Source: an uncultured Bacteroidales bacterium
Lineage (GTDB): Bacteria > Bacteroidota > Bacteroidia > Bacteroidales > F082
NCBI GenBank assembly: GCA_946408345.1
Contig: CAMJRR010000012.1
Coordinates: forward strand, 1,993-65,992
Direction of reading: 5' to 3'
Length of the DNA: 64,000 nucleotides
The notes under the pieces are model-generated. The model worked only from the letters and a program-made list of their open reading frames with translations, did not search any database and was not told where the DNA came from. Positions 7,980 to 41,500 of this stretch are shown here, in pieces; position 1 is the stretch's first letter; every line of letters begins with the position of its first letter. The position numbers and the translations under genes were made by a program.

Positions 7980-8495
7980 ATGATGTACTACAAGATTAGC
8001 AACAAAAAGAGCAAAACCTACAAAAAGTGCCACGAACTTCGCACGGAAGAACTGAAAATGGAAAAAGAAAACGCCAAGCGAGTCCGTGAGATTGTTGGCG
8101 ACGATTGGGACCACTTCTGCGGATGGAGTGGTCAACAGAACATCGACCGGGTTACTTGGTATAACGGTTTTGCCTTCAAAGACCCGTCCAAACTGTCAAA
8201 CGCATGGAAAAAGCACAAAGAGTATCCAGATATTTATGTTCCCAATACAAGGACGAAGGCTGGGAAAAAGATAAAAGAGGAATTGAATAATCTACAACGG
8301 TCGTGTTTCTATAGGGTACTGGAAATATTCGGATTGCAAGTGATTGGCAGGTTCAGCTATCCATATATGGAGATATGCGATAGTGGAGAGATAGTATTGG
8401 CCATGGATGACCAATTCAATTTTGACAATTTCCCCGAGGTCATAGAAATCACCAAGAGAGAAGCCGAAAGGCTGCTGAAAGGAGGGGAGGAATGA
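7980..8495 (+). CDS. hypothetical early protein
   Basis: 171 aa. GGAGG sits 6 nt upstream of the ATG. Confidence 0.65.
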   Translation: MMYYKISNKKSKTYKKCHELRTEELKMEKENAKRVREIVGDDWDHFCGWSGQQNIDRVTWYNGFAFKDPSKLSNAWKKHKEYPDIYVPNTRTKAGKKIKEELNNLQRSCFYRVLEIFGLQVIGRFSYPYMEICDSGEIVLAMDDQFNFDNFPEVIEITKREAERLLKGGEE

Positions 8496-10087
8496 TCCGC
8501 CTTCTCTACATCGACCTCTTTTGTGGTGCTGGTGGCACCACCACGGGCGTTGAAGCTGCCCGCATTGGCGGCAAGAAATGCGCAAAGGTGATTGCCTGCG
8601 TCAACCACGACGCCAACGCCATCCGTAGCCATGCCGCCAACCACCCCGACGCGCTCCACTTCACCGAGGACATCCGCACACTCGACATTGCGCCATTAGC
8701 CGCTCACCTGGCCAAGTGCCGCAAGCTCTATCCAGGTGCAAAGGTGGTGCTGTGGGCTTCGCTCGAATGCACCAACTTCAGCAAGGCCAAAGGTGGCTTG
8801 CCGCGTGATGCCGACAGCCGCACCCTCGCCGAACACCTCTTCCGTTACATCGAAGCCCTCAGCCCCGATTACATCCAAATCGAAAACGTGGAGGAGTTCA
8901 TGAGCTGGGGCGACATGGACGAACACGGCCACCCCATCAGCCGCGACCGTGGCCGCAGCTTCATGGCGTGGGTCAACCATGTGCGCGACTACGGCTATTA
9001 CTTCGACTACCGCATCCTCAATGCCGCCGACTATGGCGCCTACACCAGCCGCAAACGCTTCTTTGCCATCTTCGGCAAGAAAGGTCTGCCCGTGGTGTTC
9101 CCCGTGGCCACCTACGCAAAAAACGGCAACGAGGGACTGGAAATCTTCGGCGACACGATGTATCACAAATGGAAGCCCGTGCTCGAAGTTCTCGACCTTG
9201 ACGACGAAGGCACGAGCATCTTCACCCGCAAGAAACCCTTGTGCGAAAAGACCCTCAAACGCATCTATGCCGGACTGATCAAGTTTGTGGCTCACGGCAA
9301 AGACAATTTCCTCGTGAAGTACAACTCGATGAACCAAAGGGGCGAATATGTCGCGCCTGGCACTGACGAGCCAAGCCCAACCGTGGCCGTCCAGAACCGC
9401 CTTGGATTCGCCAAGGTGCAGTTCCTCAGCAAACACTTCAGCGGCGACCCCGCCAGCAAGAACACCAGCGTAGACCAGCCTGCCGGAACACTCACTTGCA
9501 AGTGCAACCAGTCGTTCATCACGGCCTATTACAGCAACGGCGACAACTGCACCCCGATTGACAGGCCGGCGCCGACCATCCCCGCCCAGGATCGTGTTGC
9601 CTTGGTCACCACGCAGTTCTACCAAAACGAGTATGGCGCAGGCGGCCAACTCTCCAGCCTTGACCAACCCAATCCCACCGTGATGCCAACACCCAAGCAG
9701 AAATTGGTGTCGGTCAAGCAGTACCTCATGAACCCCCAGTTCGACAGTGCCGGTGGCAGCATCGACCAGCCTTGTTTCACCCTCATTGCCCGCATGGATA
9801 AAATGCCGCCCTATCTCGTCACCACCAAGGAGGGTGTCGGCATTGCCATCTTTGAGGACGACTCGCCGATGACCGTCAAGATAAAGGAGTTCATGGCCTT
9901 GTATAACATCGTCGACATCCGTATGCGGATGCTGAAGGTGGACGAACTGAAGCGCATCATGGGTTTCCCGACCGACTATGTGTTAATCGGCACCCAGAGC
10001 GAACAAAAGAAATTCATCGGCAACGCGGTCGAGGTCGGCATGGCCAGGCAGCTTTGCGAAACATTAGCTAATTGTGTGAGAGTATGA
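8492..10087 (+). CDS. DNA (cytosine-5)-methyltransferase
   Basis: 531 aa. Motifs DLFCGAGG (I), LECTNFS (catalytic Cys, IV), IENV (VI) and SRKRFF (VIII). No adjacent endonuclease gene. Confidence 0.85.
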   Translation: MIRLLYIDLFCGAGGTTTGVEAARIGGKKCAKVIACVNHDANAIRSHAANHPDALHFTEDIRTLDIAPLAAHLAKCRKLYPGAKVVLWASLECTNFSKAKGGLPRDADSRTLAEHLFRYIEALSPDYIQIENVEEFMSWGDMDEHGHPISRDRGRSFMAWVNHVRDYGYYFDYRILNAADYGAYTSRKRFFAIFGKKGLPVVFPVATYAKNGNEGLEIFGDTMYHKWKPVLEVLDLDDEGTSIFTRKKPLCEKTLKRIYAGLIKFVAHGKDNFLVKYNSMNQRGEYVAPGTDEPSPTVAVQNRLGFAKVQFLSKHFSGDPASKNTSVDQPAGTLTCKCNQSFITAYYSNGDNCTPIDRPAPTIPAQDRVALVTTQFYQNEYGAGGQLSSLDQPNPTVMPTPKQKLVSVKQYLMNPQFDSAGGSIDQPCFTLIARMDKMPPYLVTTKEGVGIAIFEDDSPMTVKIKEFMALYNIVDIRMRMLKVDELKRIMGFPTDYVLIGTQSEQKKFIGNAVEVGMARQLCETLANCVRV

Positions 10088-18271: not shown

Positions 18272-19582
18272 ATGCCCAAACTATCATTATTCAACGACAT
18301 CTTCCGCGAGCCGTGGATGATCGAGCCGCAGACCGCCGCCGCACAGAAACAGGTGCTGCAAGGTCTGCTGATGGGCTTGGAGTTCACCCAGGAGGATGAA
18401 ATGGTGCAGGCCGCCATCGGCCATAAGCAGAACCCTTCCATCCCTCGTGGCAGAAGCATCAACGTGGTCAACCTCGAAGGCACCATGCTCCGTGATGACG
18501 GACTTTGCGGCATGGTGGGCACACGCACCCTCGCCGCCTTGATCCGTGAAGCCGACGCCAAGGAGGAAGTGATTGGCCATGTCCTCTACATCGACTCCGG
18601 CGGTGGCGCCGCCAACAGCGTGCCCGACCTCGCCGAAGCCATCCAAGCCTGCCAGAAGCCCGTGGTCGCCTTCGTCGACGGCTACATGTGCAGCGCGGCC
18701 ATGTATGTCGGCAGCTACTGCCGCCACATCATAGCCAACCGCGAAGACAACAAGGTGGGCTGCATCGGCACGATGATCCAACTCGGAGACTGGCCCAAGC
18801 AAGTCAAGGACAGCGACGGCATCATTCACCTACGCGTCTATGCCGACGGAGCGGACGAAAAGAACGAGGAGTACGAGAAAGCCCTTGAAGGCAATTTCAG
18901 CCTCATCAAGGAACGTGTGCTCAATCCGCACAACGAACGCTTCAAAGCAGACATCAGAGCCAACCGACCAAACGTGAACGAAAACCAATTGAGAGGCCGC
19001 ACCTACAACGCCAAGGATGTGACCGGCTCACTTATCGATGCCATCGGCAACTTCGATAGTGCCGTGGCTAAAGTGCTTGAATTGTCAAACCTTAAAATAA
19101 CCAAGATGGACGAATATCAGAACCTGCAATCGCTCCCTGGCTGCCAAAACCTTGAAATTGTTGATGGCAGCGTGAGCCTCACCGAAGAACAGGTGTTGGA
19201 GGTTGACAAAGCCATCGGCGAAGGTATTACTGCAAAGGCCTTGAATGAGACCGACAAAAAGACCATCACCGAACAGGCAAAAACCATCACCGACCTCACT
19301 GCCGAACGTGACGAACTGAAGACCAAGGCCGACCAAGTGGAAGCCAAGGATGCCGAAATCGCCACCCTCACCACCGAACGCGACAACCTCAAAGAGGACA
19401 ACGCGAAGAAGGACGCCCGCATCGCCGAGCTGGAAGCAGCTCTCGATAAGAACCCCGACAACGACGAAGACCCGTTGCCTGCCATGCACCTCGGCAACCC
19501 TGCAAAGGAAGATACCTTCAAGGAACTCTCCGACGAGGAAGCAATGGAATACGCCCGCAAAGTCGTCAAAGGAGAAATCTAA
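18272..19582 (+). CDS. S49-family (SppA/ClpP-like) prohead protease with C-terminal coiled-coil scaffold region
   Basis: 436 aa. VLYIDSGGGAANSV and CSAAMYVGSYCRHIIAN. The C-terminal third is a charged heptad-like sequence. Confidence 0.8.
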   Translation: MPKLSLFNDIFREPWMIEPQTAAAQKQVLQGLLMGLEFTQEDEMVQAAIGHKQNPSIPRGRSINVVNLEGTMLRDDGLCGMVGTRTLAALIREADAKEEVIGHVLYIDSGGGAANSVPDLAEAIQACQKPVVAFVDGYMCSAAMYVGSYCRHIIANREDNKVGCIGTMIQLGDWPKQVKDSDGIIHLRVYADGADEKNEEYEKALEGNFSLIKERVLNPHNERFKADIRANRPNVNENQLRGRTYNAKDVTGSLIDAIGNFDSAVAKVLELSNLKITKMDEYQNLQSLPGCQNLEIVDGSVSLTEEQVLEVDKAIGEGITAKALNETDKKTITEQAKTITDLTAERDELKTKADQVEAKDAEIATLTTERDNLKEDNAKKDARIAELEAALDKNPDNDEDPLPAMHLGNPAKEDTFKELSDEEAMEYARKVVKGEI

Positions 19583-19615
19583 CCAGAAACATAACCACCA
19601 AAAACCATTACCAAA

Positions 19616-20908
19616 ATGCCTGAAGTTATCAACACCGTTTCTTTGGCTGATGCCCTGGTCCACAGTAACCATAAATTCCGTAAGGAGTGCATGCTGATTG
19701 TGATGGCCGCAGTCGAAGAAGTCACCCGCCACATGCGCGTGATCAATGGACTGAAGGGCAAGGAGACCGAGGCCACCATCGTGCCTCAGGCCAAGTTCCG
19801 CCCTTACCACTCCGAGAAGGTAGTTAGCGGCACTGGCGGCCTCACCGCCCGCACGCTCGAGACCTTCCCGCTCGAAATCCTTGAGGAGTTCGACCCCGAA
19901 AACCTCTACACCACCATCTTCGGTACCCCTGTCGATGCCGAGAAGATCAACCTCGACATCGTTCGCCGCATCCTCACCGAGGAAATGAACAACGCAAGCC
20001 GTGGCCTGTGCGACCTTATCTTCAAGGGCGTGCGTGTGGCCGATGGCACTGGAGCCCTCGATGGCTTCGACGGCTTCGACACCATCATCGCCAAGGAGAT
20101 TGCCGCTGGCAACATCAGCCTTGAAGCTGGCAACTTCACCAACCTGGGCGAAGTGAACTCCACCAACATCGGCGACCTCTGGAAGCGCATGTATCGCAAG
20201 ATGGCCGAAACCCTCCGTGGTGGCGCCACCAAGAAACTGAAGCTCATCTGCTCGTTCACCGAGTACGACATGTACAAGAACTGGTACGCCCTGCAGTTCG
20301 GAGCAGGCAACTTCGCTGGCACTCCTGAGCAGACCTACCTCGACGGCACTGCCAACAAGGTGCAAATCGTCCCGTTGCCCGGCATGGACGGTGTGGGCCA
20401 CTGCTTCGTCACCGTGCAAGAGAACATGAAGGTCGGCTTCGACGTGCTGTCCAAGTCCACCAAGTTCAACGTGCGCATCCCCGACAACCCCAACGTGGTC
20501 CAGATGCACGCGAAGATTTATGCCGGTGTTAACTTCGCCAACATCAGCAAGGACTTCCTCATGGTCGGTGCCCGTACCGTGAAGGACGACAGCGTATTTA
20601 TGGATGCCGACAAGTCTTCCGTGACCTTCGCCGACACTGCTTCCAACGCTACCAAGACCGCCAAGGTGAAGTTCTTCGGCTTCAACCTGACCGAGGCCAC
20701 CAGCCTGACCCTTGAAGGCACCAACGCCGCCAAGTTCAGCCTGAGCGCCAACAGCATCTCCGCCGCCGACGCCAACGCCACCGCTGGCAAGGAAATCACC
20801 ATCACCTTCACTCCTGGAGCCACTGGCAGCTTCACAGCCGCCCTGCGCGTGACCAATGCCACCGACAACGTGAGCATCGTCATCCCGCTGGCTGGTAAGG
20901 GAGTCTAA
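19616..20908 (+). CDS. major capsid protein with C-terminal Ig-like domain (call by position)
   Basis: 430 aa, directly after the protease/scaffold. The C-terminal ~100 aa is a T/S/A-rich beta-type repeat (KVKFFGFNLTEATSLTLEG...ITITFTPGATGSF). Confidence 0.65.
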   Translation: MPEVINTVSLADALVHSNHKFRKECMLIVMAAVEEVTRHMRVINGLKGKETEATIVPQAKFRPYHSEKVVSGTGGLTARTLETFPLEILEEFDPENLYTTIFGTPVDAEKINLDIVRRILTEEMNNASRGLCDLIFKGVRVADGTGALDGFDGFDTIIAKEIAAGNISLEAGNFTNLGEVNSTNIGDLWKRMYRKMAETLRGGATKKLKLICSFTEYDMYKNWYALQFGAGNFAGTPEQTYLDGTANKVQIVPLPGMDGVGHCFVTVQENMKVGFDVLSKSTKFNVRIPDNPNVVQMHAKIYAGVNFANISKDFLMVGARTVKDDSVFMDADKSSVTFADTASNATKTAKVKFFGFNLTEATSLTLEGTNAAKFSLSANSISAADANATAGKEITITFTPGATGSFTAALRVTNATDNVSIVIPLAGKGV

Positions 20909-23163: not shown

Positions 23164-23728
23164 TGAAAATCTACAACTCATCGAGAACAATATGTTCCTC
23201 CCTGAAGAGAGTCGCAAACCTTTAACAGAAAGCCAATGCAAATTGCTTGAAGAGGTGACGGATTGCTACCACGTACAACTCCAAAAACCAATGATCAGCC
23301 GCGCGTCTCTACGTGATTATCTCATTAATAAGTACAAGCTGACTAAGACTCAGGCATACCGCGTCATCCAGTATGCTGCAGTCATCCTTGGCAACGTGCA
23401 ACCAACGCACAAAAACTTCATACGACAACGAGTTGAGTTCCTATCTGAGAAAGCCTACGAAGCCATCGAGGCTACAGATTACCGGCGTGCTGATGCTCTG
23501 ACAAAGTTGGCCAAGGTGCTCTCCAAAGCCTTTGCCACCAATATTGATGAAGGTGAGCTCATCAATGCGCAGAAGTATCTCGAAATCGATGTGGTGAACA
23601 TCACCATCGACCCCACAGCACTCGGCATCAAGACCAGCGAAGCAAAGCAAAGGGAAATCAATAAGATGCTCCGCAAATACGAGATTGAAGACGCTGAAAT
23701 CATTCCACCAGAGGAGGATAAGGAATGA
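23156..23728 (+). CDS. hypothetical protein (packaging module)
   Basis: 190-aa ORF overlapping both neighbours. Confidence 0.6.
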   Translation: MRDENLQLIENNMFLPEESRKPLTESQCKLLEEVTDCYHVQLQKPMISRASLRDYLINKYKLTKTQAYRVIQYAAVILGNVQPTHKNFIRQRVEFLSEKAYEAIEATDYRRADALTKLAKVLSKAFATNIDEGELINAQKYLEIDVVNITIDPTALGIKTSEAKQREINKMLRKYEIEDAEIIPPEEDKE

Positions 23729-25311
23729 ATAACCTCTATCTCCATCCTGGCCAACTCCGCTACAAACTGGTTGATCCACGCGATTCGGTCAACATCTGCA
23801 GCCGTCGATGGGGCAAATCCTTCATCATTGCCATGCGTATCATGGGCAACGTGCTGGAGATGCCTGGCAGCCTCGGTGTGTTCGTGGCCAGCAGTTTCCG
23901 TCAAGCCCATGCCCGCACCCTGCCTTCGGCTCTCATGGCCATGGATGCCTTCGGATGGAAGCGCGATATCCATTATGTGATTGGCCATCGACCCGACCCG
24001 CGTTTAGGCTTCAAGGAACCCATCTTCTGCCCAAGCGACCTGAAAGATGTGATATGGTTTGCCAACGGCACGATTATGATGATCGTGAGCCAGGAGGTAG
24101 TGCTGTCGGCCAACTCCCTTACCATCCACTGGCTCGTCGCCGATGAAGCCAAGGGCCTCGACTACGACAAACTTTCCAACGAGATACTCCCCGCCATCGG
24201 TGGTAGCTCCATCTACTTCAACGACCCAGCAAAATATCCTCACCTCTGGGGCACAACCTACACGACCGATATGCCGTGCAGCAAGGAAGGTTTGTGGCTT
24301 ATCAACAAGTTCGAAAACGAATGTGACCCTGAACTGTATGAAACCATCATCGGCATGGAACTCCAAAAACGCCGACTGATGACGGAGCCTCAGAACACCT
24401 ACACCAGGCAACGCATAGCCTACCTGACACGTGCCGCAAACCTCTTGCGGTCAAAGACACTCTATTACCAGGAGCGTTCCATTTTCGACAATATCGCCGT
24501 GGTTGGCCCTGACTATGTGAAACGCTGTGAACGAAGTATGCCTGCCCTTGCCTTCAGAACATCCATCCTTTGCAAACGTATCGACAAAGTGGAAGGTATG
24601 TTCTATGAGAGCTTCGAAAAGAAAGTGCACATCTACCATGCAACGGATAACAGCCGGTTGAATGATTATAAGGAACAAAAATATGACTGTCTCCTCGACA
24701 CCGACATCGTGAGAACCAAGCCAATCGCCATCAGCTTCGACTATGGCGCACTCATCAACTGGCTTGTGGCCGCCCAGGTGCAAGGCGGCACTCACAAGAC
24801 CTTGAAGAGTTTCTACACGAAACACAAGCAACGCCTTCGCGAAGTGATTCAACTCTTCTGCGAGTATTACGAAGCCCATCCCTGCAAAACGGTGTTCTAT
24901 TACTTCGACTCCACAGCCTTGGCCACCGGCTATGTCGAAGTCGGCCACGCTGCCTACGACATTGTCCACGATGAATTGCAGAAGCACTGTTGGTACGTCA
25001 AGGATAAGCCCCTCGGAAACCCGATGGAACACGACAAGAAACACAAGATCATCAACGATGCCTTCGAAGGACGAAAGAAGCTGATGCCCATGTTCAACGC
25101 CGACAACAACGAGGAACTGATCCAGGCAATGATGTTGGCTGAAGTGGTGATAGGTTCCAAAGGGGTACGCAAGGACAAATCCGGTGAAAAGACCATCGAG
25201 AGCGACACCAACCTGCCCTTGGAACTCCGCACCGATGGCACCGACGCATGGGACACCAACTTCCTCGGCTGCCTTACCCATCCTTACGATGACGATTTCA
25301 TCTATGGGTAG
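23725..25311 (+). CDS. terL: terminase large subunit
   Basis: 528 aa. Walker A-like SRRWGKS and Walker B-like HWLVADEA. Size and position are typical. Confidence 0.8.
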   Translation: MNNLYLHPGQLRYKLVDPRDSVNICSRRWGKSFIIAMRIMGNVLEMPGSLGVFVASSFRQAHARTLPSALMAMDAFGWKRDIHYVIGHRPDPRLGFKEPIFCPSDLKDVIWFANGTIMMIVSQEVVLSANSLTIHWLVADEAKGLDYDKLSNEILPAIGGSSIYFNDPAKYPHLWGTTYTTDMPCSKEGLWLINKFENECDPELYETIIGMELQKRRLMTEPQNTYTRQRIAYLTRAANLLRSKTLYYQERSIFDNIAVVGPDYVKRCERSMPALAFRTSILCKRIDKVEGMFYESFEKKVHIYHATDNSRLNDYKEQKYDCLLDTDIVRTKPIAISFDYGALINWLVAAQVQGGTHKTLKSFYTKHKQRLREVIQLFCEYYEAHPCKTVFYYFDSTALATGYVEVGHAAYDIVHDELQKHCWYVKDKPLGNPMEHDKKHKIINDAFEGRKKLMPMFNADNNEELIQAMMLAEVVIGSKGVRKDKSGEKTIESDTNLPLELRTDGTDAWDTNFLGCLTHPYDDDFIYG

Positions 25312-25699
25312 TAAAATCAAACTTGCCAATCGAAGCCGGAAGAACCGCATGTTCTTTGACCATCTCATCCGCGAGATAGCCATTTGCCTCAATGTGGGCG
25401 ACACGGCTTTGAACCGTGAGCAACTTGTACCGACCTATGTCAAACATACCCAAGCCAGAGAACTCGTTGAAGACGAGAACTACATCCAAATCACCCGCGA
25501 TACGGGCTGCCTTTACCAACCTTTGGCGCAAATCCTTCCCTGCAAGCTCCTTGACCAGATTGATGAGATGCTACAGCAAGCCCCACACAACCTGAAGGGA
25601 AGCCATTCAAGGAAACTCATCACCGACTATCTTTCCAGTTGCACCGACCTCACCGAATGCCATTATTCCGCTATGAATCTGATGCAGTCCGTTTATTGA
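25304..25699 (+). CDS. hypothetical protein
   Basis: 131 aa from ATG 25304, which overlaps the TerL stop. Confidence 0.55.
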   Translation: MGSKIKLANRSRKNRMFFDHLIREIAICLNVGDTALNREQLVPTYVKHTQARELVEDENYIQITRDTGCLYQPLAQILPCKLLDQIDEMLQQAPHNLKGSHSRKLITDYLSSCTDLTECHYSAMNLMQSVY

Positions 25700-25752
25700 C
25701 AGGGCTTTATTCGTTGATTGCCGATTAAGCGGGTTTCGCCGTGCTTAATTTG

Positions 25753-25893
25753 CAGTTTAATTTTCGGGGGTCAAAACTAAATTGGCAGTTAAGCCAAAGT
25801 AAAATATCAGTTTAATTTTCAGGGGTTAAAACTAAATTGGCAGTTAAGCCAAAGTAAAATATCAGTTTAATTTTCGGGGGTCAAAATTAAAAT
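25753..25893 (+). repeat. 55-bp tandem repeat, about 2.5 copies
   Basis: CAGTTTAATTTTCGGGGGTCAAAACTAAATTGGCAGTTAAGCCAAAGTAAAATAT starts at 25753, 25808 and 25863 (last copy partial). It is preceded by the hairpin ATTAAGC-N12-GCTTAAT. Confidence 0.85.
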
Positions 25894-25940
25894 CATCGCA
25901 AAAAAAATCGCCCAAATTGTTGCACATTCCAAAAAAGCCG

Positions 25941-25948
25941 TATATTTG
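25941..25948 (+). promoter_or_regulatory. -7 promoter box within the recurring TATATTTGCAGCG motif
   Basis: TATATTTG. The extended motif recurs at 26966 and 41284, with variants at 28937, 42739 and 42927. Confidence 0.55.
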
Positions 25949-25952
25949 CAGC

Positions 25953-26137
25953 GTTCAAACTATTCGCGGCGTAAGATGACAGCCGCACCAACAGCGGCAT
26001 TTTTTATGCCTATACATATCGATGATTAACAGAGCCAACGGCTCCGAGGGACGCGGTAGCAGTAATGCCCGTAAGGTTTGCGAATAGACCTGAACACCCC
26101 TATCGGAGCCTATTTTGTTCAATGTTCAAACTATTCG
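25953..26137 (+). promoter_or_regulatory. structured 5' leader (box / anti-box / box) of ORF 26115-26546
   Basis: The 14-mer GTTCAAACTATTCG occurs at 25953-25966 and 26124-26137. An imperfect complement lies at 26081-26095. A helix pairs 26040-26050 with 26097-26110. A terminator-like hairpin plus T-run lies at 25982-26005. Confidence 0.55.
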
Positions 26138-26546
26138 TATTATGTTCTATCCAACATCGAAGCGTTCCCAGCGTTGGGACGCCATCCAAGAGACCATCGG
26201 CGCGTGGGTCGAAAGCCGCCCCGAGCCTAAAGTGTGGAACAACAGCCTCCGCAGCCACATCTATGTAAGTTCGAAGACCCGTCGCGAGTTGCCCTACTGG
26301 GGCAGCAAGAACCCCCAAAGCACCGAGGCCATCTGCAAGCACTTCAATGAGATCATGCGCTTCGCCGTCAAGAAGGAAGAGGTGCAGCCGCATTCAGGCG
26401 CCGGCAAGCACTTCACCAAACTCATCATCCTTGAGCGCAAGATTGAGGGTTTCGGCACGGCCAAACTCACCGTGGGAGTCAACCAGGAAGGCCGCCTGAT
26501 GAATTATTGCATCACCGTGCCGCCTGCGGAGATGGCGATGGCTTGA
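26115..26546 (+). CDS. hypothetical protein (start 26115 or 26142)
   Basis: 143-aa ORF followed by a terminator. I could not defend any motif. Confidence 0.6.
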   Translation: MFNVQTIRIMFYPTSKRSQRWDAIQETIGAWVESRPEPKVWNNSLRSHIYVSSKTRRELPYWGSKNPQSTEAICKHFNEIMRFAVKKEEVQPHSGAGKHFTKLIILERKIEGFGTAKLTVGVNQEGRLMNYCITVPPAEMAMA

Positions 26547-26570
26547 GGCCGTCCCTCCTTCATCCATCCG

Positions 26571-26603
26571 AGGCGCGAGGCAATTGCCCCGCGCCTTCTT
26601 TTT
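26571..26603 (+). terminator. rho-independent terminator
   Basis: AGGCGCGAGG-caattg-CCCCGCGCCT followed by TCTTTTT. Confidence 0.7.
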
Positions 26604-26707
26604 GCCCGCGCCCCGCCGTTCCCCCGCCACCGCCGCCGCATATTTCGCAAAAAAGAGGGCTTGATTTCTAAAAAACCAAGAGGGCGGCGCGGGGTCTGAC
26701 GACGCAA

Positions 26708-26738
26708 AACGCGCCGATTTTTGCAAAATCGGCGCGTT
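26708..26738. repeat. perfect 14-bp inverted repeat carrying the GCGCCGATTTT motif
   Basis: AACGCGCCGATTTT-tgc-AAAATCGGCGCGTT. Each half-site shares 11 nt with the prophage-arm motifs. Confidence 0.8.
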
Positions 26739-26798
26739 AGGTGGTTGATGGATAGAGATTTGACTACTTTCAATTGTGAACTCTGATAATATAAAAAA

Positions 26799-26847
26799 AA
26801 TTCGCCGCCTGCGGCGTCCGGCTGGACTGGCAGGCGGCGAATTTTTG
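26799..26847. terminator. strong bidirectional terminator-type hairpin
   Basis: AATTCGCCGCCTGC (26799-26812) pairs with GCAGGCGGCGAATT (26830-26843). An A-run lies upstream and a T-run downstream. Confidence 0.75.
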
Positions 26848-26965
26848 ATGAAAAGTGGAAAATTTTCTATTTTGTAAGTGTACAAATATCAATGATTTAC
26901 AAAGATAATGAAAAATAATTGAAAAAATCTCATTTTTTTTTACTTGCTATGTTGTCAAATATGAC

Positions 26966-26973
26966 TATATTTG
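26966..26973 (+). promoter_or_regulatory. -7 promoter box (TATATTTGCAGCG) for the acidic-protein gene
   Basis: TATATTTG, 58 nt upstream of ATG 27031. Confidence 0.55.
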
Positions 26974-27030
26974 CAGCGTATTTCAATTCAAACAACAAAT
27001 AATTCGATTAAACAAAGAAAGGGTAAAAAA

Positions 27031-28164
27031 ATGAAAAACGACATCATCACCGAGAACATCAACGGACTGCAATTCAACGAACTGGTAGTAACAATGCAGA
27101 CAATGATTGAAGAATCAATCGCTTGTTTGTGGTACAATGACAAGAAAGATTATCTTTCGCAACTTGCTTGGTATAAGGATTGCAAGATGGAAGATTATTT
27201 TAATGTATGGACAGAAATTTGGGACGACGAAGATGGCAAGATAGGCGAAGGCCTTGACACTATCGCCCACAAGTTCGTCCTCAACGACGATACGAGAGAC
27301 GACTTTGAGTCCGCTTTTGAACAAGCCCGCGACGAGGCTTTCGAGGCGAGACTGAAAGAGATTGCTGAAGAAATCGAAGAAATCGACGATGACGACATCA
27401 AAGACATCGAAATAGACAATGATGGGAGTGAAGAAGAAATCGGAAGCCGTATTTCGGAAGCAAGTGACGCTATCAAAAAGCAAGGTGGAATAAGTGTCGC
27501 TTATGACAGTGACAATTGCTTGGATTTCCGCTTCGACCTTCTTCAGGAAATTTATGAAGCTGGCAATAATCTGTCATGCAGACAGATTGCGGCCTGGGCT
27601 GGAGCTAATGTTTGCATCCGTTATCAAGGCAATAATCCTTTTGATTACGTCTACGATTTTTATAGGGTTGATAAGAAAATCGAAACAGACTTGGATAATA
27701 TGACGGTTCACGCATACGGATATGATGAAAACGACAACGCCGAGGTCGAAGTCAATATGCAGAATAAAGTCGACAAGGACACTGAAAATGATGATTGCGC
27801 ATACGAAGTGATGGGTGCAGACTATGAGGAGGGAGTTTGGTATGCGAAACTCGTTGAACACTCCAAGTGCGACGAAACATTGTTTCAGATTGTGTTGGGA
27901 ATGAATAAGGAAGATTACAAGAAACAAGAGGAATTGCACGACTTTGAGGTTGAGGAAGCCTTCAATGAAGCAGAACGCAACTTCAATACGCGTGAATTTA
28001 GGGATGTGTCTGATTGCATTGCTGGCATTGAAGACTTTCAAGAGAACGCGGAGTTCGGTCAAAAGGCTTACATTGACGGCGTTACTTACTACAAAGTGCG
28101 TAATAGCGTGGATGAAGAGCCTTATACAATCTATTTTGAAGATGAACATTTGGAGATTTTGTAA
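27031..28164 (+). CDS. highly acidic protein (candidate DNA mimic / anti-restriction; function unknown)
   Basis: 377 aa from ATG 27031. Long D/E runs such as EIAEEIEEIDDDDIKDIEIDNDGSEEE. It has its own promoter and looks AT-rich. Confidence 0.65.
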   Translation: MKNDIITENINGLQFNELVVTMQTMIEESIACLWYNDKKDYLSQLAWYKDCKMEDYFNVWTEIWDDEDGKIGEGLDTIAHKFVLNDDTRDDFESAFEQARDEAFEARLKEIAEEIEEIDDDDIKDIEIDNDGSEEEIGSRISEASDAIKKQGGISVAYDSDNCLDFRFDLLQEIYEAGNNLSCRQIAAWAGANVCIRYQGNNPFDYVYDFYRVDKKIETDLDNMTVHAYGYDENDNAEVEVNMQNKVDKDTENDDCAYEVMGADYEEGVWYAKLVEHSKCDETLFQIVLGMNKEDYKKQEELHDFEVEEAFNEAERNFNTREFRDVSDCIAGIEDFQENAEFGQKAYIDGVTYYKVRNSVDEEPYTIYFEDEHLEIL

Positions 28165-28212
28165 ATAAAATCAAGTAATAGTTGCGCACGACACGTATCA
28201 GTGCATTTTTAA

Positions 28213-28578
28213 ATGATCGTAAGATCCGAATCAGGGGAAACCATCGTCGAGCGGCATCATTTCGAAGGGAAGAACATCGCGTTCTTGAATGAACACGCGA
28301 CATTCGACGGCAGTTGTTATCTGCTTTCTGACGAAGACGCAAAAACCTTCAAGATGATGAACACGAAGCACATAATATTGTGCAACAGCCTCTTTCTGCC
28401 TCGCTTTGCGAAGTTGGCAAACTGGGAGGTAGACTACGAAACAGGAAGGGTGAAAGGTGAGTATTACGACGAGAAAGAGAACGTGCATTACAGGACAAAA
28501 TGGTTCTCTTACAAGTGCCTTGAAGGATTTTTCGATGTCCTTTACACTATATGTAAATGTAAATTCGCTAAACGATAA
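28213..28578 (+). CDS. hypothetical protein
   Basis: 121-aa ORF. Confidence 0.55.
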   Translation: MIVRSESGETIVERHHFEGKNIAFLNEHATFDGSCYLLSDEDAKTFKMMNTKHIILCNSLFLPRFAKLANWEVDYETGRVKGEYYDEKENVHYRTKWFSYKCLEGFFDVLYTICKCKFAKR

Positions 28579-28582
28579 TGCT

Positions 28583-28903
28583 ATGCAAGAGATTACCGTA
28601 AAAGAGAAGATAAGAATGATTATCGAAATCAACGAGGCCGAAAACCCGGGCGAGAAGCTGGTTTCGGCAGGAACAGCCCTTGGTGGCGGAATCGGCTACA
28701 ATTTCGTTGAGAACCGCGCCTTCGTGCGTACCGACCTGCGAAAGAAGGTGATGGATAGGATAGCGGAGGAACACCTGAACAGGCGCGAGGTGGCGAGGGC
28801 AATAGGCTTCGACTACCAGAATTTTTACAACTTCCTGCAAGGCAAACGCGGCCTGCCTTACGAGAAGGTGGAGGAATTGCTTGCCCTCTTGGGCATAGCG
28901 TAA
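28583..28903 (+). CDS. XRE-like HTH protein
   Basis: 106 aa from ATG 28583. C-terminal LNRREVARAIGFDYQNFYNFLQGKRGLPYEKVEELL. Confidence 0.6.
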   Translation: MQEITVKEKIRMIIEINEAENPGEKLVSAGTALGGGIGYNFVENRAFVRTDLRKKVMDRIAEEHLNRREVARAIGFDYQNFYNFLQGKRGLPYEKVEELLALLGIA

Positions 28904-28936
28904 CGAAAAATTTGTTGCGCATTCGGAAATAATGCG

Positions 28937-28944
28937 TACCTTTG
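28937..28944 (+). promoter_or_regulatory. -7 promoter box (TACCTTTGCAGCG)
   Basis: TACCTTTG, 34 nt after the HTH gene stop. Confidence 0.5.
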
Positions 28945-28949
28945 CAGCG

Positions 28950-29093
28950 CAATTGTCGACGGGGGCAACCCCTGTTTAATCGAACCATATGGAATTGAAA
29001 TACCATTTCTGACAGTTGCAGGTGGGCAATTTCTACTATCGTAGATACAAACTTCACCAAAATGAGCGAGGCTTCGGCTTCGCTCTTTTTTTT
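28950..29093 (+). ncRNA. candidate stand-alone small RNA (~140 nt), promoter to terminator, no ORF
   Basis: Bounded by the -7 box at 28937-28944 and the terminator GAGCGAGGC-ttcg-GCTTCGCTC plus T8 (29064-29093). The 5' GCAATTGTC is complementary to GACAGTTGC about 60 nt downstream. Confidence 0.5.
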
Positions 29094-29119
29094 GTCACTT
29101 GCATTGCTTTCGTGGTGGA

Positions 29120-29127
29120 TATTTTTG
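29120..29127 (+). promoter_or_regulatory. -7 promoter box (TATTTTTG) for the portal operon
   Basis: 23 nt upstream of ATG 29150. Confidence 0.5.
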
Positions 29128-29149
29128 CTCGTAACCAAAAACCATATCA

Positions 29150-29374
29150 ATGATTCACGAAAGCAAATTGTTTGAATTGGTTCAAACGCATCCTTCGTTT
29201 TCGCTGACTTATGTGTCGAAGAGCGGGGAGCTGATTGCAGTGGACGAATGCCGCTGCACCTCGTTCCACAGCTCAGGCAAAACGATGAACATATTGATTG
29301 CCGCCTCAGGGCTGGTGCGTAAGGTGAACCGTAAGACCGTCACGGCCTTCAACGGAAAGGAGGTATTCCTATGA
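29150..29374 (+). CDS. hypothetical small protein
   Basis: 74-aa ORF whose stop overlaps the portal start. Confidence 0.55.
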   Translation: MIHESKLFELVQTHPSFSLTYVSKSGELIAVDECRCTSFHSSGKTMNILIAASGLVRKVNRKTVTAFNGKEVFL

Positions 29375-30750
29375 ATATTCCCGAAGAAGAGATGGTCTCC
29401 TGGGTGGGTGACAAGATTGCACTCTATAAGACAGCTTGCGTCGTTCTTGGCAACGATACGCTGACCCTTTTCGATGAAAAAGACCTGCAACCTGTCAGTG
29501 TGCATGGGTATCGCGTCGCGCCGTGGGGCGTGAATAACGACCTGCCACAACAGGTGATGGCCAAGATTGACGCGGCTGAAATCGTTGGCACCAACGCCAA
29601 CTTCAACTGGAAGGTGGCCTACGGATTAGGCCCGAAGCTCGTGGAGGTCATCCGCGACCCCGAAACCAACCGCGTGAAGGACTTCAAGGAAGTGATTGAA
29701 GGCGAGGCCTACGATTGGTATATGCGTAACAACGTGCCGCTGCTGTTGCAGGAAATCATGACCGACCTTTCCTATTTCGGCAACGCTTTCCCGCTCCTGA
29801 TTGCAGGCCCGAAGGATAAAGACGGGAAAAAGCGTGTCGGCATTCGCGGCATCGTGCACCGCGAAGCGATGTTCAGCCGTTGGGGCCTCACGAAAAAGGA
29901 TTTGATCAGCCGGCACCTGTATTGCGCCAAGTGGGACGACAGCCCGACGAAGGAGGAAATCCAGGATTCCTACGTGATTGACGAATACAACGCCGTTGAC
30001 GACATCAACAACAGGCTGCTGCTGGGCAAAGACACAAGGATGTGCTTCCCCATCTACATCACTTCGCCCGGGCGACCCTACTACAGCTATCCCAACTGGT
30101 GGAGCATCTTCCGCTCGGGATGGTACGACCAACTGACCAGCATCCCCGCACTGAAAAAGGCCATCCTGAAGCACAACCTCGGCGTTCGCCATATCATCTA
30201 CATTGCTGATGAGTATTTCGCGGAAAAAGAGGAGCTGCTGAAGATTAACAAGGATGACAAGAAGAGCCGCAAGGAGCTTTACGATGAGGTGGTGAAGCAA
30301 CTGTGCGAACAGGTGACAGGGGAGGAGAATGCCGGAAAGGCCGTTGTGTCGAAGATGAAGTTCATGCCCAACGGCAACAGTGCATCGTTCGAGAAGATGA
30401 TGAGTGTTGATACCATTAAAAATGATATCAGCGGTGGCGAATACTTGACCGACTACGAGACGGGAGCCAACATCATCAGCTACGCCATGGATGTCCACCC
30501 CTCGTTAATCGGTGCCACACCTGGCAAGAACTCCAACAGCCTTTCGGGCAGCAACATCCGAGAGATCTTCATCATGAAGCAGAGCCTCAGCAAGCCGATG
30601 GCGTACCTGGCCCTGCAATGGTGGCCGGTGGTGAGGAAGATTAACGGCTGGAACAATAACCTCGAAATCATGATCCAAGACAGCCTGTTCACGACCCTCG
30701 ACCAGTCGAAATCAGGCGAAGTGAAAACCGCAAACAATCCTACGCAATGA
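29371..30750 (+). CDS. portal protein (call by size and position)
   Basis: 459-aa ORF, the largest head-module protein apart from the terminase, protease and capsid genes. Confidence 0.55.
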   Translation: MNIPEEEMVSWVGDKIALYKTACVVLGNDTLTLFDEKDLQPVSVHGYRVAPWGVNNDLPQQVMAKIDAAEIVGTNANFNWKVAYGLGPKLVEVIRDPETNRVKDFKEVIEGEAYDWYMRNNVPLLLQEIMTDLSYFGNAFPLLIAGPKDKDGKKRVGIRGIVHREAMFSRWGLTKKDLISRHLYCAKWDDSPTKEEIQDSYVIDEYNAVDDINNRLLLGKDTRMCFPIYITSPGRPYYSYPNWWSIFRSGWYDQLTSIPALKKAILKHNLGVRHIIYIADEYFAEKEELLKINKDDKKSRKELYDEVVKQLCEQVTGEENAGKAVVSKMKFMPNGNSASFEKMMSVDTIKNDISGGEYLTDYETGANIISYAMDVHPSLIGATPGKNSNSLSGSNIREIFIMKQSLSKPMAYLALQWWPVVRKINGWNNNLEIMIQDSLFTTLDQSKSGEVKTANNPTQ

Positions 30751-34148: not shown

Positions 34149-34221
34149 TGCGGGGTAGAGCAGCGGCCAGCTCACTGGGCTCATATCCCAGAGGTCGGCG
34201 GTTCGAATCCGTCCCCCGCTA
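34149..34221 (+). tRNA. tRNA-Met(CAT), initiator type
   Basis: The cloverleaf fits standard numbering. T1:T72 is mismatched, A11:T24 pairs, and three G:C pairs (29-31/39-41) close the anticodon stem. The loop is CTCATAT and the T loop TTCGAAT. No CCA is encoded. Confidence 0.85.
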
Positions 34222-34296
34222 CAAGGAGAGCGTTTAGATGTCCCGGCAAACTCCTAACCAAACAGGCAACATCAAGTGAGTGAGAATCTCACAAAC

Positions 34297-34401
34297 GGGG
34301 ATGTCGCCCAGAGGCAGGGCATTCCGTGTAAAGGGTAGCAGAACAGAAGCACGGAGTAATAGTTCGCTTGAGAGACGCGGGTTCGAATCCCGCTTTCCCC
34401 A
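34297..34401 (+). ncRNA. aberrant 105-nt tRNA-like element
   Basis: Good D arm (GCCC-AGAGGCA-GGGC) and T arm (GCGGG-TTCGAAT-CCCGC). The acceptor GGGGATG/TTTCCCC is imperfect. The anticodon position holds an 8-bp stem with a 21-nt loop, followed by a 20-nt linker. Confidence 0.45.
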
Positions 34402-41283: not shown

Positions 41284-41291
41284 TATATTTG
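41284..41291 (+). promoter_or_regulatory. -7 promoter box (TATATTTGCAGCG)
   Basis: TATATTTG. Confidence 0.55.
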
Positions 41292-41295
41292 CAGC

Positions 41296-41500
41296 GTCTA
41301 CAACATGATAGTTAGTCTATCTCGCAGGGGCGGCGGAAACAGCCCAAGACATACCGAGGGCTTTTTTTATTGCCCTCTCCGAGTAAGACCTCTGCGGTCG
41401 CCTTTCGTAACATAAAGTCCCCTCGTGGTAGACAGTCATGTTGTAGACAGCGAAACGGCGACCGCTTTCTTGTTGCCCAAACCTAAATGTCTACAACATG
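41296..41500 (+). promoter_or_regulatory. structured ~200-nt 5' leader (box / anti-box / box) occluding start codon 41498
   Basis: GTCTACAACATG occurs at 41296-41307 and 41489-41500, and the second copy contains the ATG. Its exact complement CATGTTGTAGAC lies at 41437-41448. Further helices pair 41394-41407 with 41451-41465 and 41352-41360 with 41419-41430. Confidence 0.6.

Follow-up and report, generated by a model that had tools for sequence, protein, structure and literature searches.

What lies between the genes for the large terminase (TerL) and the portal protein in this prophage, and what is it doing there? In the 64-kb stretch of Bacteroidales DNA analysed here (the window), 3.8 kb separate TerL from orf74, the gene that opens the portal operon, and our answer is that this interval is an insertion hotspot for accessory cassettes in temperate phages of rumen and gut Bacteroidales. 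Beyond that, we consider it probable that the slot holds a nested stack, composed of orf131 with a set of repeats, a module of c4 type, a terminator block and a captured cassette, and that its effectors are gated by RNA and act early. The window represents a prophage in a host of the Bacteroidota, with a gene for a tyrosine integrase (59537-60709, minus strand) adjoining two tRNA-Val genes and a host dipeptidyl-peptidase gene coming next; because of this position of the integrase we regard the element as temperate. The nearest genomic relatives are Bacteroidales metagenome-assembled genomes (MAGs) from rumen and roe-deer gut, and it is from these four MAG relatives that we infer the hosts; a megablast search of the region against GenBank phages gave no match.

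The hotspot is recognised by its conserved flanks, by content that differs between close relatives, and by an empty site. The sample of relatives comprised 12 IMG/VR contigs, 4 MAG contigs and one further viral contig encoding TerL (labelled L001 and so on). TerL is 70-98% identical in 17 relatives, and the flanks, mapped with the proteins of the window, run in the order orf190 gene, TerL, slot, orf74, portal, DUF6712 protein and orf241. On the right, the slot is bounded by the promoter of the orf74-portal operon (a TAnnTTTG type, 29120-29127), which is kept in 10/10 aligned relatives and in the empty-site relative L014. Between these flanks, the distance from TerL to orf74 ranges from about 0.07 to 8.4 kb across 16 related phages and prophages, with differing content (about 0.07 kb in L014; 1.4 kb in L001; 1.5 kb in L003; 1.9 kb in L008, L010 and L011; 2.6 kb in L072; 3.1 kb in L074; 3.2 kb in L075; 3.4 kb in L073; 3.5 kb in L002; 3.7 kb in L004 and L012; 4.5 kb in L005; 8.4 kb in L006). 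L014 represents the empty site, with the portal-operon promoter directly after the TerL stop codon. In L072, TerL and portal are 98% identical to those of the window, and the interval shares only the terminator block and 45 bp. Conserved flanks, varying content and at least one empty site, the features by which an accessory hotspot of a phage is known, are all present here.

The sequence-only reading, an earlier account of this locus, had suggested aligning related prophages to learn whether the interval is a variable hotspot, and the 16 relatives show that it is; the outcome it had named as speaking against its proposal was conservation of the interval in all relatives, and they differ in both length and content. 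It had the end of TerL (25311) and the start of the portal gene (29371) right, as judged by PHROG 2 and tblastn. Its premise that the two genes are usually near-adjacent fails for more distant relatives of the lineage, where TerL and portal are also several (3-4) kb apart. The limits that it drew need to be moved: the island begins at 25312, not 25700, and so includes orf131 (25304-25699), which had been left out, and it ends at about 29089, not 29150, upstream of the conserved portal-operon promoter. The description of the cargo as independently transcribed agrees with what can be read from the sequence, namely self-contained units, each with its own promoter motif and terminator.

Accessory hotspots of temperate phages, such as morons and the defence hotspots of P2-like and P4-like elements, resemble this slot in having a fixed site between conserved genes and varying cargo, predicted here to be independently transcribed, in close relatives. 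The present site differs in lying between TerL and the portal operon, and its cargo leans to types found in conjugative elements (ArdC-N, RadC, DUF932-like) rather than to recognised defence systems. Pfam matches in the slots of relatives comprise an ArdC-N-like protein (22.7 bits against a threshold of 22.6), a RadC JAB protein (E = 3e-34), a PRTase-like and DUF932-like pair (both below threshold), and an SNF2 protein with a pair of PAPS-reductase/DUF3440 and ParB_N proteins, the pair being one that we take to be IbrA/IbrB-like. One relative's slot also has a gene pair that resembles HicA and HicB, by eye only.

The slot itself has an internal structure. A terminator block (at least 26680-26846) is 83-96% identical in L002, L004, L005, L012 and L072-L075, lies within longer, less similar matches in L003 (78%) and L006 (68%), and is shared by L008-L011 only over its first ~70 bp (26679-26749). 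The block abuts the portal promoter in L002-L004 and L072-L075, and because this junction (26846|29087) is intact in those relatives, the segment from 26847 to about 29088 is an additional insertion nested within the slot; in L005 and L012 other cargo occupies this junction. The block thus splits the slot in two: the left compartment extends from TerL up to the block, and the right one from there to the portal promoter. Just to the right of the block, 26850-26905 is a degenerate copy of the portal promoter and orf74 start at 29110-29165 (ATATCAATGATTTACAAA vs ATATCAATGATTCACGAA; family D3), which may be a scar or duplication from the insertion of the cassette.

The left compartment carries the c4-2 module (25917-26546), of which we compared 16 copies, that of the window, four from relatives and eleven from metagenomes. 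The order of parts is conserved in all 16: a promoter (P1), a target box (box 1), a GC hairpin with a U-run, the c4-2 RNA, a second target box (box 2), and the ATG of a 134-aa open reading frame (ORF), orf134. TAnnTTTG is the consensus of the Bacteroidota -7 promoter element, and the -7 motif of P1 is kept in 16/16 copies with one variable position (TATATTTG or TATCTTTG); the -33 element and the spacing were read from the window sequence only. The RNA of the window resembles the Rfam family c4-2 (RF02944) in its score above the gathering threshold (46.1 bits versus 41, E = 8e-7), in its match to the full covariance model (positions 1-79), and in its secondary structure. The copies retain the closing stem enclosing two hairpins that defines the family structure, and 94.4% of stem cells across copies are paired, compared with 34-47% in slid controls, with five compensatory pairs. 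The structured leader that the sequence-only reading had seen in front of a 143-aa ORF is thus a c4-2 RNA (26040-26112).

Box 1 is an exact repeat of box 2, with no other exact copy within the window, and both boxes are complementary to the loop of c4-2 hairpin 2 (UUGCGAAUAG) together with the 3' joiner UGAAC. The variation between copies falls in loop, joiner and boxes, which change in concert and yield about 14 distinct specificity sequences in 16 copies. Column-wise covariation counts for the pairing between RNA and boxes were dropped, because MAFFT misaligns the variable boxes, in favour of a 16 × 16 matrix of predicted duplex energies for cognate and non-cognate pairs. Cognate duplexes between RNA and box 2 have a mean of -16.7 kcal/mol, against -7.1 ± 2.9 for non-cognate ones, and the cognate box is the best partner in 16/16 copies. 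For box 1, the cognate duplex is the best in 15 of the 16, the exception being L021 (278-498), a chimera that has a box 1 of the L024 type together with an RNA loop and box 2 of the L020 type; either the mismatch with box 1 is tolerated or L021 is an assembly chimera. That L021 keeps the match between loop and box 2, and not the one with box 1, suggests that the box 2 match is under the strongest constraint. As no promoter motif lies between the two boxes, a single transcript probably extends from box 1 to box 2. Because this layout and the covariation match the arrangement of the c4 RNA of phages P1 and P7 and of the P4 CI RNA, the c4-2 RNA very probably represses translation of orf134 through antisense pairing.

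A second level of control may operate in the leader. Element 1 of three short GC elements overlaps the end of box 1; elements 2 and 3 form an intrinsic terminator, and elements 1 and 2 a candidate antiterminator. When the nascent leader is folded, the 1:2 hairpin forms in 16/16 copies (-7.4 to -9.1 kcal/mol), and when box 1 is blocked in folding, the 2:3 terminator forms in 16/16 copies. These alternative folds suggest that c4-2 RNA bound to box 1 could force termination before the RNA and the ORF, a negative autoregulation as in P4, and we place this reading slightly short of even chances.

The start of orf134 is more likely the conserved ATG at 26142, which gives 134 aa, than the upstream codon that gave the 143 aa of the earlier account. 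The family comprises 39 homologue clusters, none named. Twenty-one of 37 family members weakly match the Pfam domain LPD3 (PF18798; best E 2.5e-4), and a relative 31% identical to orf134 passes the Pfam threshold with 28.8 bits. LPD3 is among the domains that occur in polyvalent proteins, which phages and conjugative elements encode and which the abstract of PMC5512222 links to conflicts between prokaryotes and genomic parasites. The AlphaFold (AF2) model of orf134 has a pLDDT of 85 and depicts a soluble alpha/beta protein, which has no Foldseek match in the PDB below E 0.05; a PDB profile search returned only compositional matches to coiled-coil proteins. The module is mobile, occupying five or more different intergenic sites in related phages (after TerL in the window, L001, L003, L006, L025 and L075; before the orf190 gene in L014; next to the integrase in L020; in tail regions in L018 and L019; and, as the second copy in L001, before the S49 protease gene), and the two copies in L001 have different specificities.

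Distant relatives of the LPD3-like protein (~31% identity; L030-L055, e.g. L034:3700-3935) lack c4-2, and have repeated ACAAACGAC motifs upstream together with a TTGACA...TTTG promoter, apparently another way of regulating this protein family. The neighbours of these relatives vary, from an AAA ATPase gene in L034 to HsdM and Fic genes in L047.

Among known systems, two offer themselves for comparison. The CI RNA of P4 acts in an immunity system of seqA, seqB and seqC, in which transcription ends prematurely when the RNA pairs with the nascent leader. The c4-2 module has a similar upstream target (box 1, corresponding to seqA), RNA and downstream target (box 2, corresponding to seqC), with the outcome of termination inferred in our case. 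It differs in having no sequence relationship to P4, in that attenuation is predicted here from alternative folds of invariant GC elements, and in that the target also covers a translation start. The immI locus of P1 and P7 is the other system: according to the account in PMC8201110, which cites Citron and Schuster 1990, the order there is a1b1, c4, and a2b2 at the icd start, and the c4 RNAs of P1 and P7 differ in specificity. As in immI, a structured small RNA lies upstream of its own target on what we take to be one transcript, two short single-stranded elements pair with a target where translation of the following ORF begins, another copy of the target lies upstream of the RNA (box 1 corresponding to a1b1, box 2 to a2b2), and RNA and targets change together between variants. 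In the P1 and P7 system, RNase P frees the RNA from its precursor, and repression has been seen in vivo. The main text of Weinberg et al. 2017 (PMC5737381) describes c4-2 only as probably a distant homologue of a previously described RNA. In a literature check, which was not exhaustive, we met no earlier account of the target boxes, of the gated LPD3-like gene, of the diversity of specificities or of the mobility.

This likeness raises the possibility that the module governs lysis-lysogeny or superinfection immunity, as an analogue of P1 immI in which orf134 would be antirepressor-like or host-arresting, the c4-2 RNA of the resident prophage would silence it along with the orf134 of any incoming phage of like specificity, and the specificities would amount to heteroimmunity among competing phages instead of counter-defence against the host. 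The shared geometry of box, RNA, box and ORF would be accounted for, as would the hypervariable specificity with strict cognate matching, which recalls the c4 RNAs of P1 and P7; the element is temperate, given its integrase (59537-60709) by the tRNA-Val genes, and L001 has two modules of different specificities. Nevertheless, orf134 has no similarity to Ant, KilA, Bro or Icd (no match in Pfam), and the module, found at a variety of junctions between structural genes and missing from many of the close relatives, cannot be the core lysogeny switch. Further differences from immI lie in the host phylum and promoter type, in the gated gene (LPD3-like here, not icd/ant), in the intrinsic terminator between box 1 and the RNA, in the occurrence of a mobile cassette at many intergenic sites, sometimes twice per phage and outside the immunity region, and in the number of specificity sequences (~14 here versus two). 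We regard an immunity function of this kind as unlikely, while still the best of the alternatives to early-acting effectors.

Could the module instead be a selfish addiction unit, with orf134 as toxin and the c4-2 RNA as antitoxin in the logic of type I or type III systems, spreading because its loss is harmful and bringing the phage no benefit, and with the cassette of the right compartment as a neutral hitch-hiker? An autonomous mobile unit at many sites, an antisense RNA predicted to cover a translation start, diversified specificities and the HicA/HicB-like pair (by eye) in one relative's slot would all suit such a unit. The protein and the RNA, however, have the wrong properties. A soluble alpha/beta protein of 134 aa is not the short hydrophobic type I toxin, nor is orf134 an endoribonuclease recognisable by Pfam or Foldseek, and neither PADLOC nor Pfam gives a toxin match; the RNA lies upstream in the same transcript and in single copy, neither overlapping its target in antisense nor forming the repeat array of type III. 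Addiction thus appears improbable, and decidedly more so than immunity.

The right compartment holds a cassette with a promoter, three genes, a small RNA (sRNA) gene and a terminator, which sequence comparison marks as a horizontal acquisition from an unrelated mobile element. A 60-kb ENA contig (L065) and a Logan contig (L066) match it at 89% identity over 2207 nt; the identity with L065 begins at the promoter and ends at the terminator U-run, and the flanks in L065 are unrelated to the window. Horizontal acquisition follows from this identity between unrelated flanks and from the distinct composition of the cassette (GC 0.429 for 26913-29089, against 0.515 for the phage). The cassette is absent from 16/16 relatives. 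The sequence-only reading had noted that the island becomes AT-richer from about 26880, which these values corroborate, and had called the cargo compositionally foreign; this holds for the right half (26913-29089) and not for the c4-2 module, which at GC 0.536 is not AT-rich (the repeat spacer has 0.361). In L065 the genes for PcfK, PcfJ and SSB precede the cassette and a YAcAr gene follows it, and we propose that it came from a non-phage mobile element, a source suggested by its sequence surroundings. HTH106 and a profile of acid377 found no relatives among IMG/VR viral contigs, and acid377 had no match among PLSDB plasmids.

Differences between the cassette and L065 fall at codon positions one, two and three in the numbers 36/23/69 in acid377, 4/4/15 in orf121 and 5/1/13 in HTH106, and since they cluster at third positions, all three ORFs are real genes; acid377 evolves fastest of the three and HTH106 slowest. 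The protein acid377, rightly described before as hyper-acidic, contains 98 D+E versus 34 K+R. A profile search of 1.8 billion representatives shows it to be a fusion, with N-terminal, middle and C-terminal domains that also occur as stand-alone proteins; it has 23 homologue clusters, none named, and ten of the stand-alone relatives were scanned, none with a significant Pfam match. The protein itself has no Pfam match, only compositional matches to coiled-coil proteins in a PDB profile search, and no Foldseek match for its AlphaFold model in the PDB or BFVD below E 0.1. The anonymous 121-aa ORF noted earlier is present as orf121. The XRE-like helix-turn-helix (HTH) protein of the earlier account is present as the ORF of HTH106, which matches the transcriptional regulators of PHROG 18104 (E = 5.8e-5), but its match to HTH_31 stays below the Pfam cut-off (19.4 bits versus 27, E = 1.3e-3).

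Two regulatory devices can be read from the cassette. Between the -33 and -7 elements of its promoter P2 lies a palindrome (GTCAAATATGAC, 26954-26965), which is perfect in L065 (GTCAAATTTGAC). In L068 a palindrome of different sequence directly precedes the -7 motif, and L069 has another upstream of the gene start, with no promoter motif identified. The palindrome is a candidate operator through which HTH106 might repress P2, a proposal for and against which we find the balance even.

The other device is the terminated non-coding transcript at 28950-29089, which the earlier account had anticipated and which we predict as an sRNA. It folds with -53.1 kcal/mol (z -6.0), is about 93% identical to its counterpart in L065, and has no Rfam match. 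In a large predicted loop it carries two 12-nt blocks (28973-28984 and 28992-29003) that are perfectly complementary, in the correct antiparallel order, to 27003-27014 and 26978-26989 in the 5' untranslated region (5'UTR) of the operon that begins with acid377. Complementary matches of at least 11 nt to this UTR exist at three plus-strand sites in the 64 kb (12 nt each), two of them in the sRNA, and the duplex has a predicted energy of -28.6 kcal/mol (z -5.8 versus shuffles). L065 keeps the pairing, with 11 nt in block 2, and is too close to serve as independent evidence. On balance, we favour a genuine interaction between the sRNA and the UTR. The 28937 promoter and 29085 terminator were also considered as an antitermination leader of the portal operon, similar to lambda PR'/tR', and this candidate was rejected because the unit belongs to the imported cassette, as its conservation in L065 attests, and because the portal operon has a promoter of its own. 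As a separate observation, the start of orf74 (29168-29179, TTGTTTGAATTG) is perfectly complementary over 12 nt to 26984-26995 of the same 5'UTR; relatives without the cassette have GAACTC instead of GAATTG in the orf74 start, and two synonymous changes lengthen the match here, which may reflect chance or else cross-talk of the cassette with the portal operon.

That the interval serves conserved functions of virion assembly or packaging (head completion, terminase accessory), its promoters, terminators and complementarities being due to chance, would fit its location among morphogenesis genes, the overlap of orf131 with the TerL stop codon, which suggests translational coupling, and the 3-4 kb between TerL and portal in more distant phages, but is already contradicted by the comparative data and almost certainly wrong, for the content differs in close relatives and an empty site exists, the cassette is common to an unrelated element, the count of promoter motifs is far above chance, and RNA and boxes covary in 16/16 copies.

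How, then, might the stack work? P1 would transcribe a leader of box 1, intrinsic terminator, c4-2 RNA and box 2, followed by orf134. The hairpin-2 loop and 3' joiner of the RNA would pair with box 2 and block translation of orf134, and pairing with box 1 would prevent the antiterminator hairpin, such that transcription ends before the RNA and the ORF. Under this scheme orf134 would appear only in a pulse, upon entry of the DNA into a cell without c4-2 RNA of the same specificity; lysogens, and cells in which a cassette of that specificity is present already, would keep it silent. In the right compartment, P2 would drive acid377, orf121 and HTH106, its palindromic operator presumably bound by the HTH protein, and the sRNA, transcribed separately from the 3' end, would bind the 5'UTR of the operon mRNA, again shutting off expression after entry. 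Both modules would thus combine a strong promoter, an effector and a co-encoded negative regulator, and because the regulator must first accumulate, a burst upon entry into a naive cell would be followed by silence. Such wiring suits proteins of early counter-defence or establishment and argues against constitutive prophage defence genes. It is most likely, in our view, that both effectors act early after entry, in counter-defence or in establishment.

A role specifically in counter-defence is a more tentative proposal, plausible from context without being the favoured outcome. It is drawn from the cargo in the slots of relatives, from the home of the cassette near PcfK, PcfJ, SSB and YAcAr genes, and from the antisense shut-off wiring. 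Conjugative plasmids concentrate anti-defence genes in their leading regions (PMC11541004), and the cassette resembles these islands, and anti-restriction genes under repressor control such as ardA, in that its other home is beside SSB, PcfJ and PcfK, and in its acidic first gene and small HTH gene, in a circuit that appears suited to an entry burst. It differs from them in its predicted trans-acting sRNA and in its presence in a phage, and the conjugative status of L065 is judged from neighbours only. Moreover, acid377 is similar in neither sequence nor fold to the anti-restriction proteins ArdA, Ocr, ArdB/KlcA and ArdC, and resembles them only in acidity.

Several observations weigh against early-acting, RNA-gated effectors, or against individual parts of this scheme. 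Promoters, transcript ends and all regulation are predictions from sequence. In the c4-2 module, the terminator lies between box 1 and the RNA, for which no separate promoter was seen, so that the RNA could be made only by read-through; the c4-2 copies in L001, L003 and L006 score below the Rfam threshold, though they align throughout; and the three GC elements of the switch are invariant in 16 copies and lend it no support by covariation. The orf134 of the window itself scores 13.3 bits against LPD3, where the threshold is 27 (E = 0.1; profile positions 6-111 of 114). In the cassette, the pairing of sRNA and UTR is found in two near-identical copies only (the window and L065/L066), duplexes of similar energy can form at two unrelated places in the window, and the divergent acid377 loci L068 and L071, which are short contigs, contain no analogue of the sRNA. 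L065 was judged a conjugative element from four neighbouring Pfam families only, and acidic composition alone does not make a protein a DNA mimic. Finally, searches with PADLOC, Pfam, NCBIfam, PHROGs and the PDB, and with Foldseek for orf134 and acid377, assign none of the cargo proteins to a known family or fold of defence or anti-defence; the hidden Markov models of PADLOC-DB 2.0 gave no match for six cargo ORFs at E up to 0.01. The expectation of the sequence-only reading that the island carries defence or counter-defence functions accordingly finds no backing in homology, no cargo protein having a significant match in these resources (for the PDB by sequence, and for Foldseek with two models).

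The locus is a clean, testable case of antisense control of c4 type outside the enterobacterial systems of P1 and P4. It belongs to the phages of Bacteroidota, whose gene regulation has been little mapped and whose accessory genes mostly lack an assigned function. Two uncharacterised protein families, that of the LPD3-like orf134 and that of the acidic three-domain protein, become candidate factors of early counter-defence or establishment. The transfer of a complete regulatory cassette between a phage and an unrelated mobile element is documented here, and metagenomes of rumen and gut can be searched for the cargo of the slot that the TerL stop codon and the promoter of the portal operon delimit. 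The ~14 orthogonal pairs of RNA and target could be used as specific translational switches in Bacteroides-type hosts. A bolder reading, for which we would claim only a low probability, is that the unit of c4-2 RNA and LPD3-like gene represents an undescribed class of mobile, RNA-locked effector cassette whose specificities are driven by conflict during co-infection, that antisense pulse circuits are general, and that acid377 and orf134 are new anti-defence proteins. In that event, a resident copy would silence incoming effectors of the same specificity, as an immunity code based on RNA, and, with the acidic-protein cassette gated by sRNA and HTH protein as a second instance, antisense-RNA pulse circuits would be a general means of timing early counter-defence genes in the mobile elements of Bacteroidota.

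Table 1. Positions of the features discussed, numbered in the window unless a contig label is given.
Feature	Position	Strand	Remarks
TerL, large terminase, left flank	23725..25311	+	PHROG 2, E 7e-9; tblastn to annotated terminases
orf131	25304..25699	+	131 aa; start overlaps TerL stop codon; itself variable
55-bp tandem repeat, 2.5 copies	25753..25891		TRF score 257; palindrome TTGGCAGTTAAGCCAA in each full unit (25782, 25837)
Promoter P1	25917..25953	+	-33 TTG 25920-25922; -7 TATATTTG 25941-25948, then CAGCG
Target box 1	25953..25967	+	GTTCAAACTATTCGC; complementary to c4-2 hairpin-2 loop and 3' joiner
Leader switch region (putative attenuator)	25966..26005	+	GCGGC 25966-25970, GCCGC 25982-25986, GCGGC 25994-25998, then U-run
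c4-2 RNA, putative antisense RNA	26040..26112	+	Rfam RF02944, clan CL00128
Target box 2	26124..26137	+	GTTCAAACTATTCG; 5-18 nt before orf134 ATG 26142
orf134	26142..26546	+	Basic, distantly LPD3-like, predicted to be gated by c4-2; 143 aa if read from TTG 26115
Conserved terminator block	26680..26846		Hairpins 26708-26738 and 26796-26846 (inverted repeats I2, I8)
Horizontally acquired cassette	26913..29089	+	Promoter, three genes, sRNA gene, terminator; GC 0.429
Promoter P2	26944..26978	+	-33 TTG 26944-26946; -7 TATATTTG 26966-26973
5'UTR of acidic-protein operon	26978..27014	+	Target blocks 26978-26989, 27003-27014 (inverted repeats I12, I5)
acid377, hyper-acidic, three-domain	27031..28164	+	377 aa, pI 4.07, net charge -64
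orf121	28213..28578	+	121 aa; next to acid377 homologue in L065/L066; only 3 homologue clusters
HTH106, XRE-like HTH protein	28583..28903	+	Presumed P2 repressor; 97% amino-acid identity to L065
Promoter P3 of sRNA	28915..28949	+	-7 TACCTTTG 28937-28944, then CAGCG; conserved in L065
Predicted sRNA, ~140 nt	28950..29089	+	Own promoter; terminator 29064-29085 and U-run
orf74-portal operon promoter	29090..29149	+	Right boundary of slot; TTTGTCACTTG, then TATTTTTG at 29120-29127
orf74	29150..29374	+	Conserved right flank, opens portal operon
Portal	29371..30750	+	459 aa; tblastn, 27% identity, E 4e-34, to annotated portal proteins
Terminator hairpins with T-runs	25982-25998; 26708-26738; 26796-26846; 29064-29085		Terminator scan, inverted repeats
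ORF-less stretch of ~1.7 kb (not in window)	L005:3538-5215; L004:11588-13312; L007:3175-4986; L012:7159-8869; L073:11585-12971		Parts also in L002, L074

The promoter motif that recurs through the interval, TAnnTTTGCAGCG, has three exact copies there (25941, 26966 and 28937) and a fourth elsewhere in the window (41284); with at most one mismatch it occurs 10 times in the window against 1.36 expected. Of the four promoters counted before in the island, three are exact copies of this motif and the fourth is not, and a further promoter of the TAnnTTTG type, at 29120-29127, drives orf74 and the portal gene. We located four terminator hairpins, where at least three had been claimed. The interval also has ORFs of 77-191 aa on the minus strand; none matches a known family, and we interpret them as shadows of the plus-strand genes.

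At the left end of the slot, orf131 follows TerL in L001, L002, L074 and L075, precedes it in L006, and is absent from the other relatives; it has no family match in Pfam, PHROGs, PADLOC or NCBIfam. The 55-bp tandem repeat reported earlier was recovered by TRF (25753-25891). Among 76 compared sequences only one relative contig has it (L001/L015; L001:10680-10873, 3.5 copies), where its place, as in the window, is between orf131 and the promoter of the c4-2 module. The repeat units may form an array of binding sites for a protein.

In several relatives the slot also contains ~1.7 kb without a credible ORF, 78-92% conserved, upstream of the PRTase-like and DUF932-like pair. RNAalifold, applied to the 3' 900 nt of five copies, predicts 278 pairs, 54 of them with compensatory double changes and with whole stems swapped, and there is no match in Rfam 15, which makes the stretch a candidate for a new large structured RNA of rumen Bacteroidales phages.

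Elsewhere in the window, TerL is preceded by the S49 prohead protease gene (18272-19582) and followed by the portal gene, a morphogenesis order that is atypical in this lineage (region 18272-20908). The phage encodes a C5 cytosine DNA methylase (8492-10087), which may be a means of self-protection against restriction. A tRNA-Met gene (34149-34222) is followed, 75 nt on, by a 105-nt Rfam tRNA match (34297-34401, 40.3 bits) that ARAGORN does not call and that may be an interrupted or unusual tRNA; the same pair occurs in L003 and L004. Lastly, the fourth exact promoter (TATATTTGCAGCG at 41284), in the tail-gene region, is followed by a leader with a hairpin and T-run (~41338-41372; region 41284-41450), and a 12-nt inverted repeat brackets this leader (TCTACAACATGA at 41298-41309 and TCATGTTGTAGA at 41437-41448), so that 41284-41450 may be another riboregulated leader.

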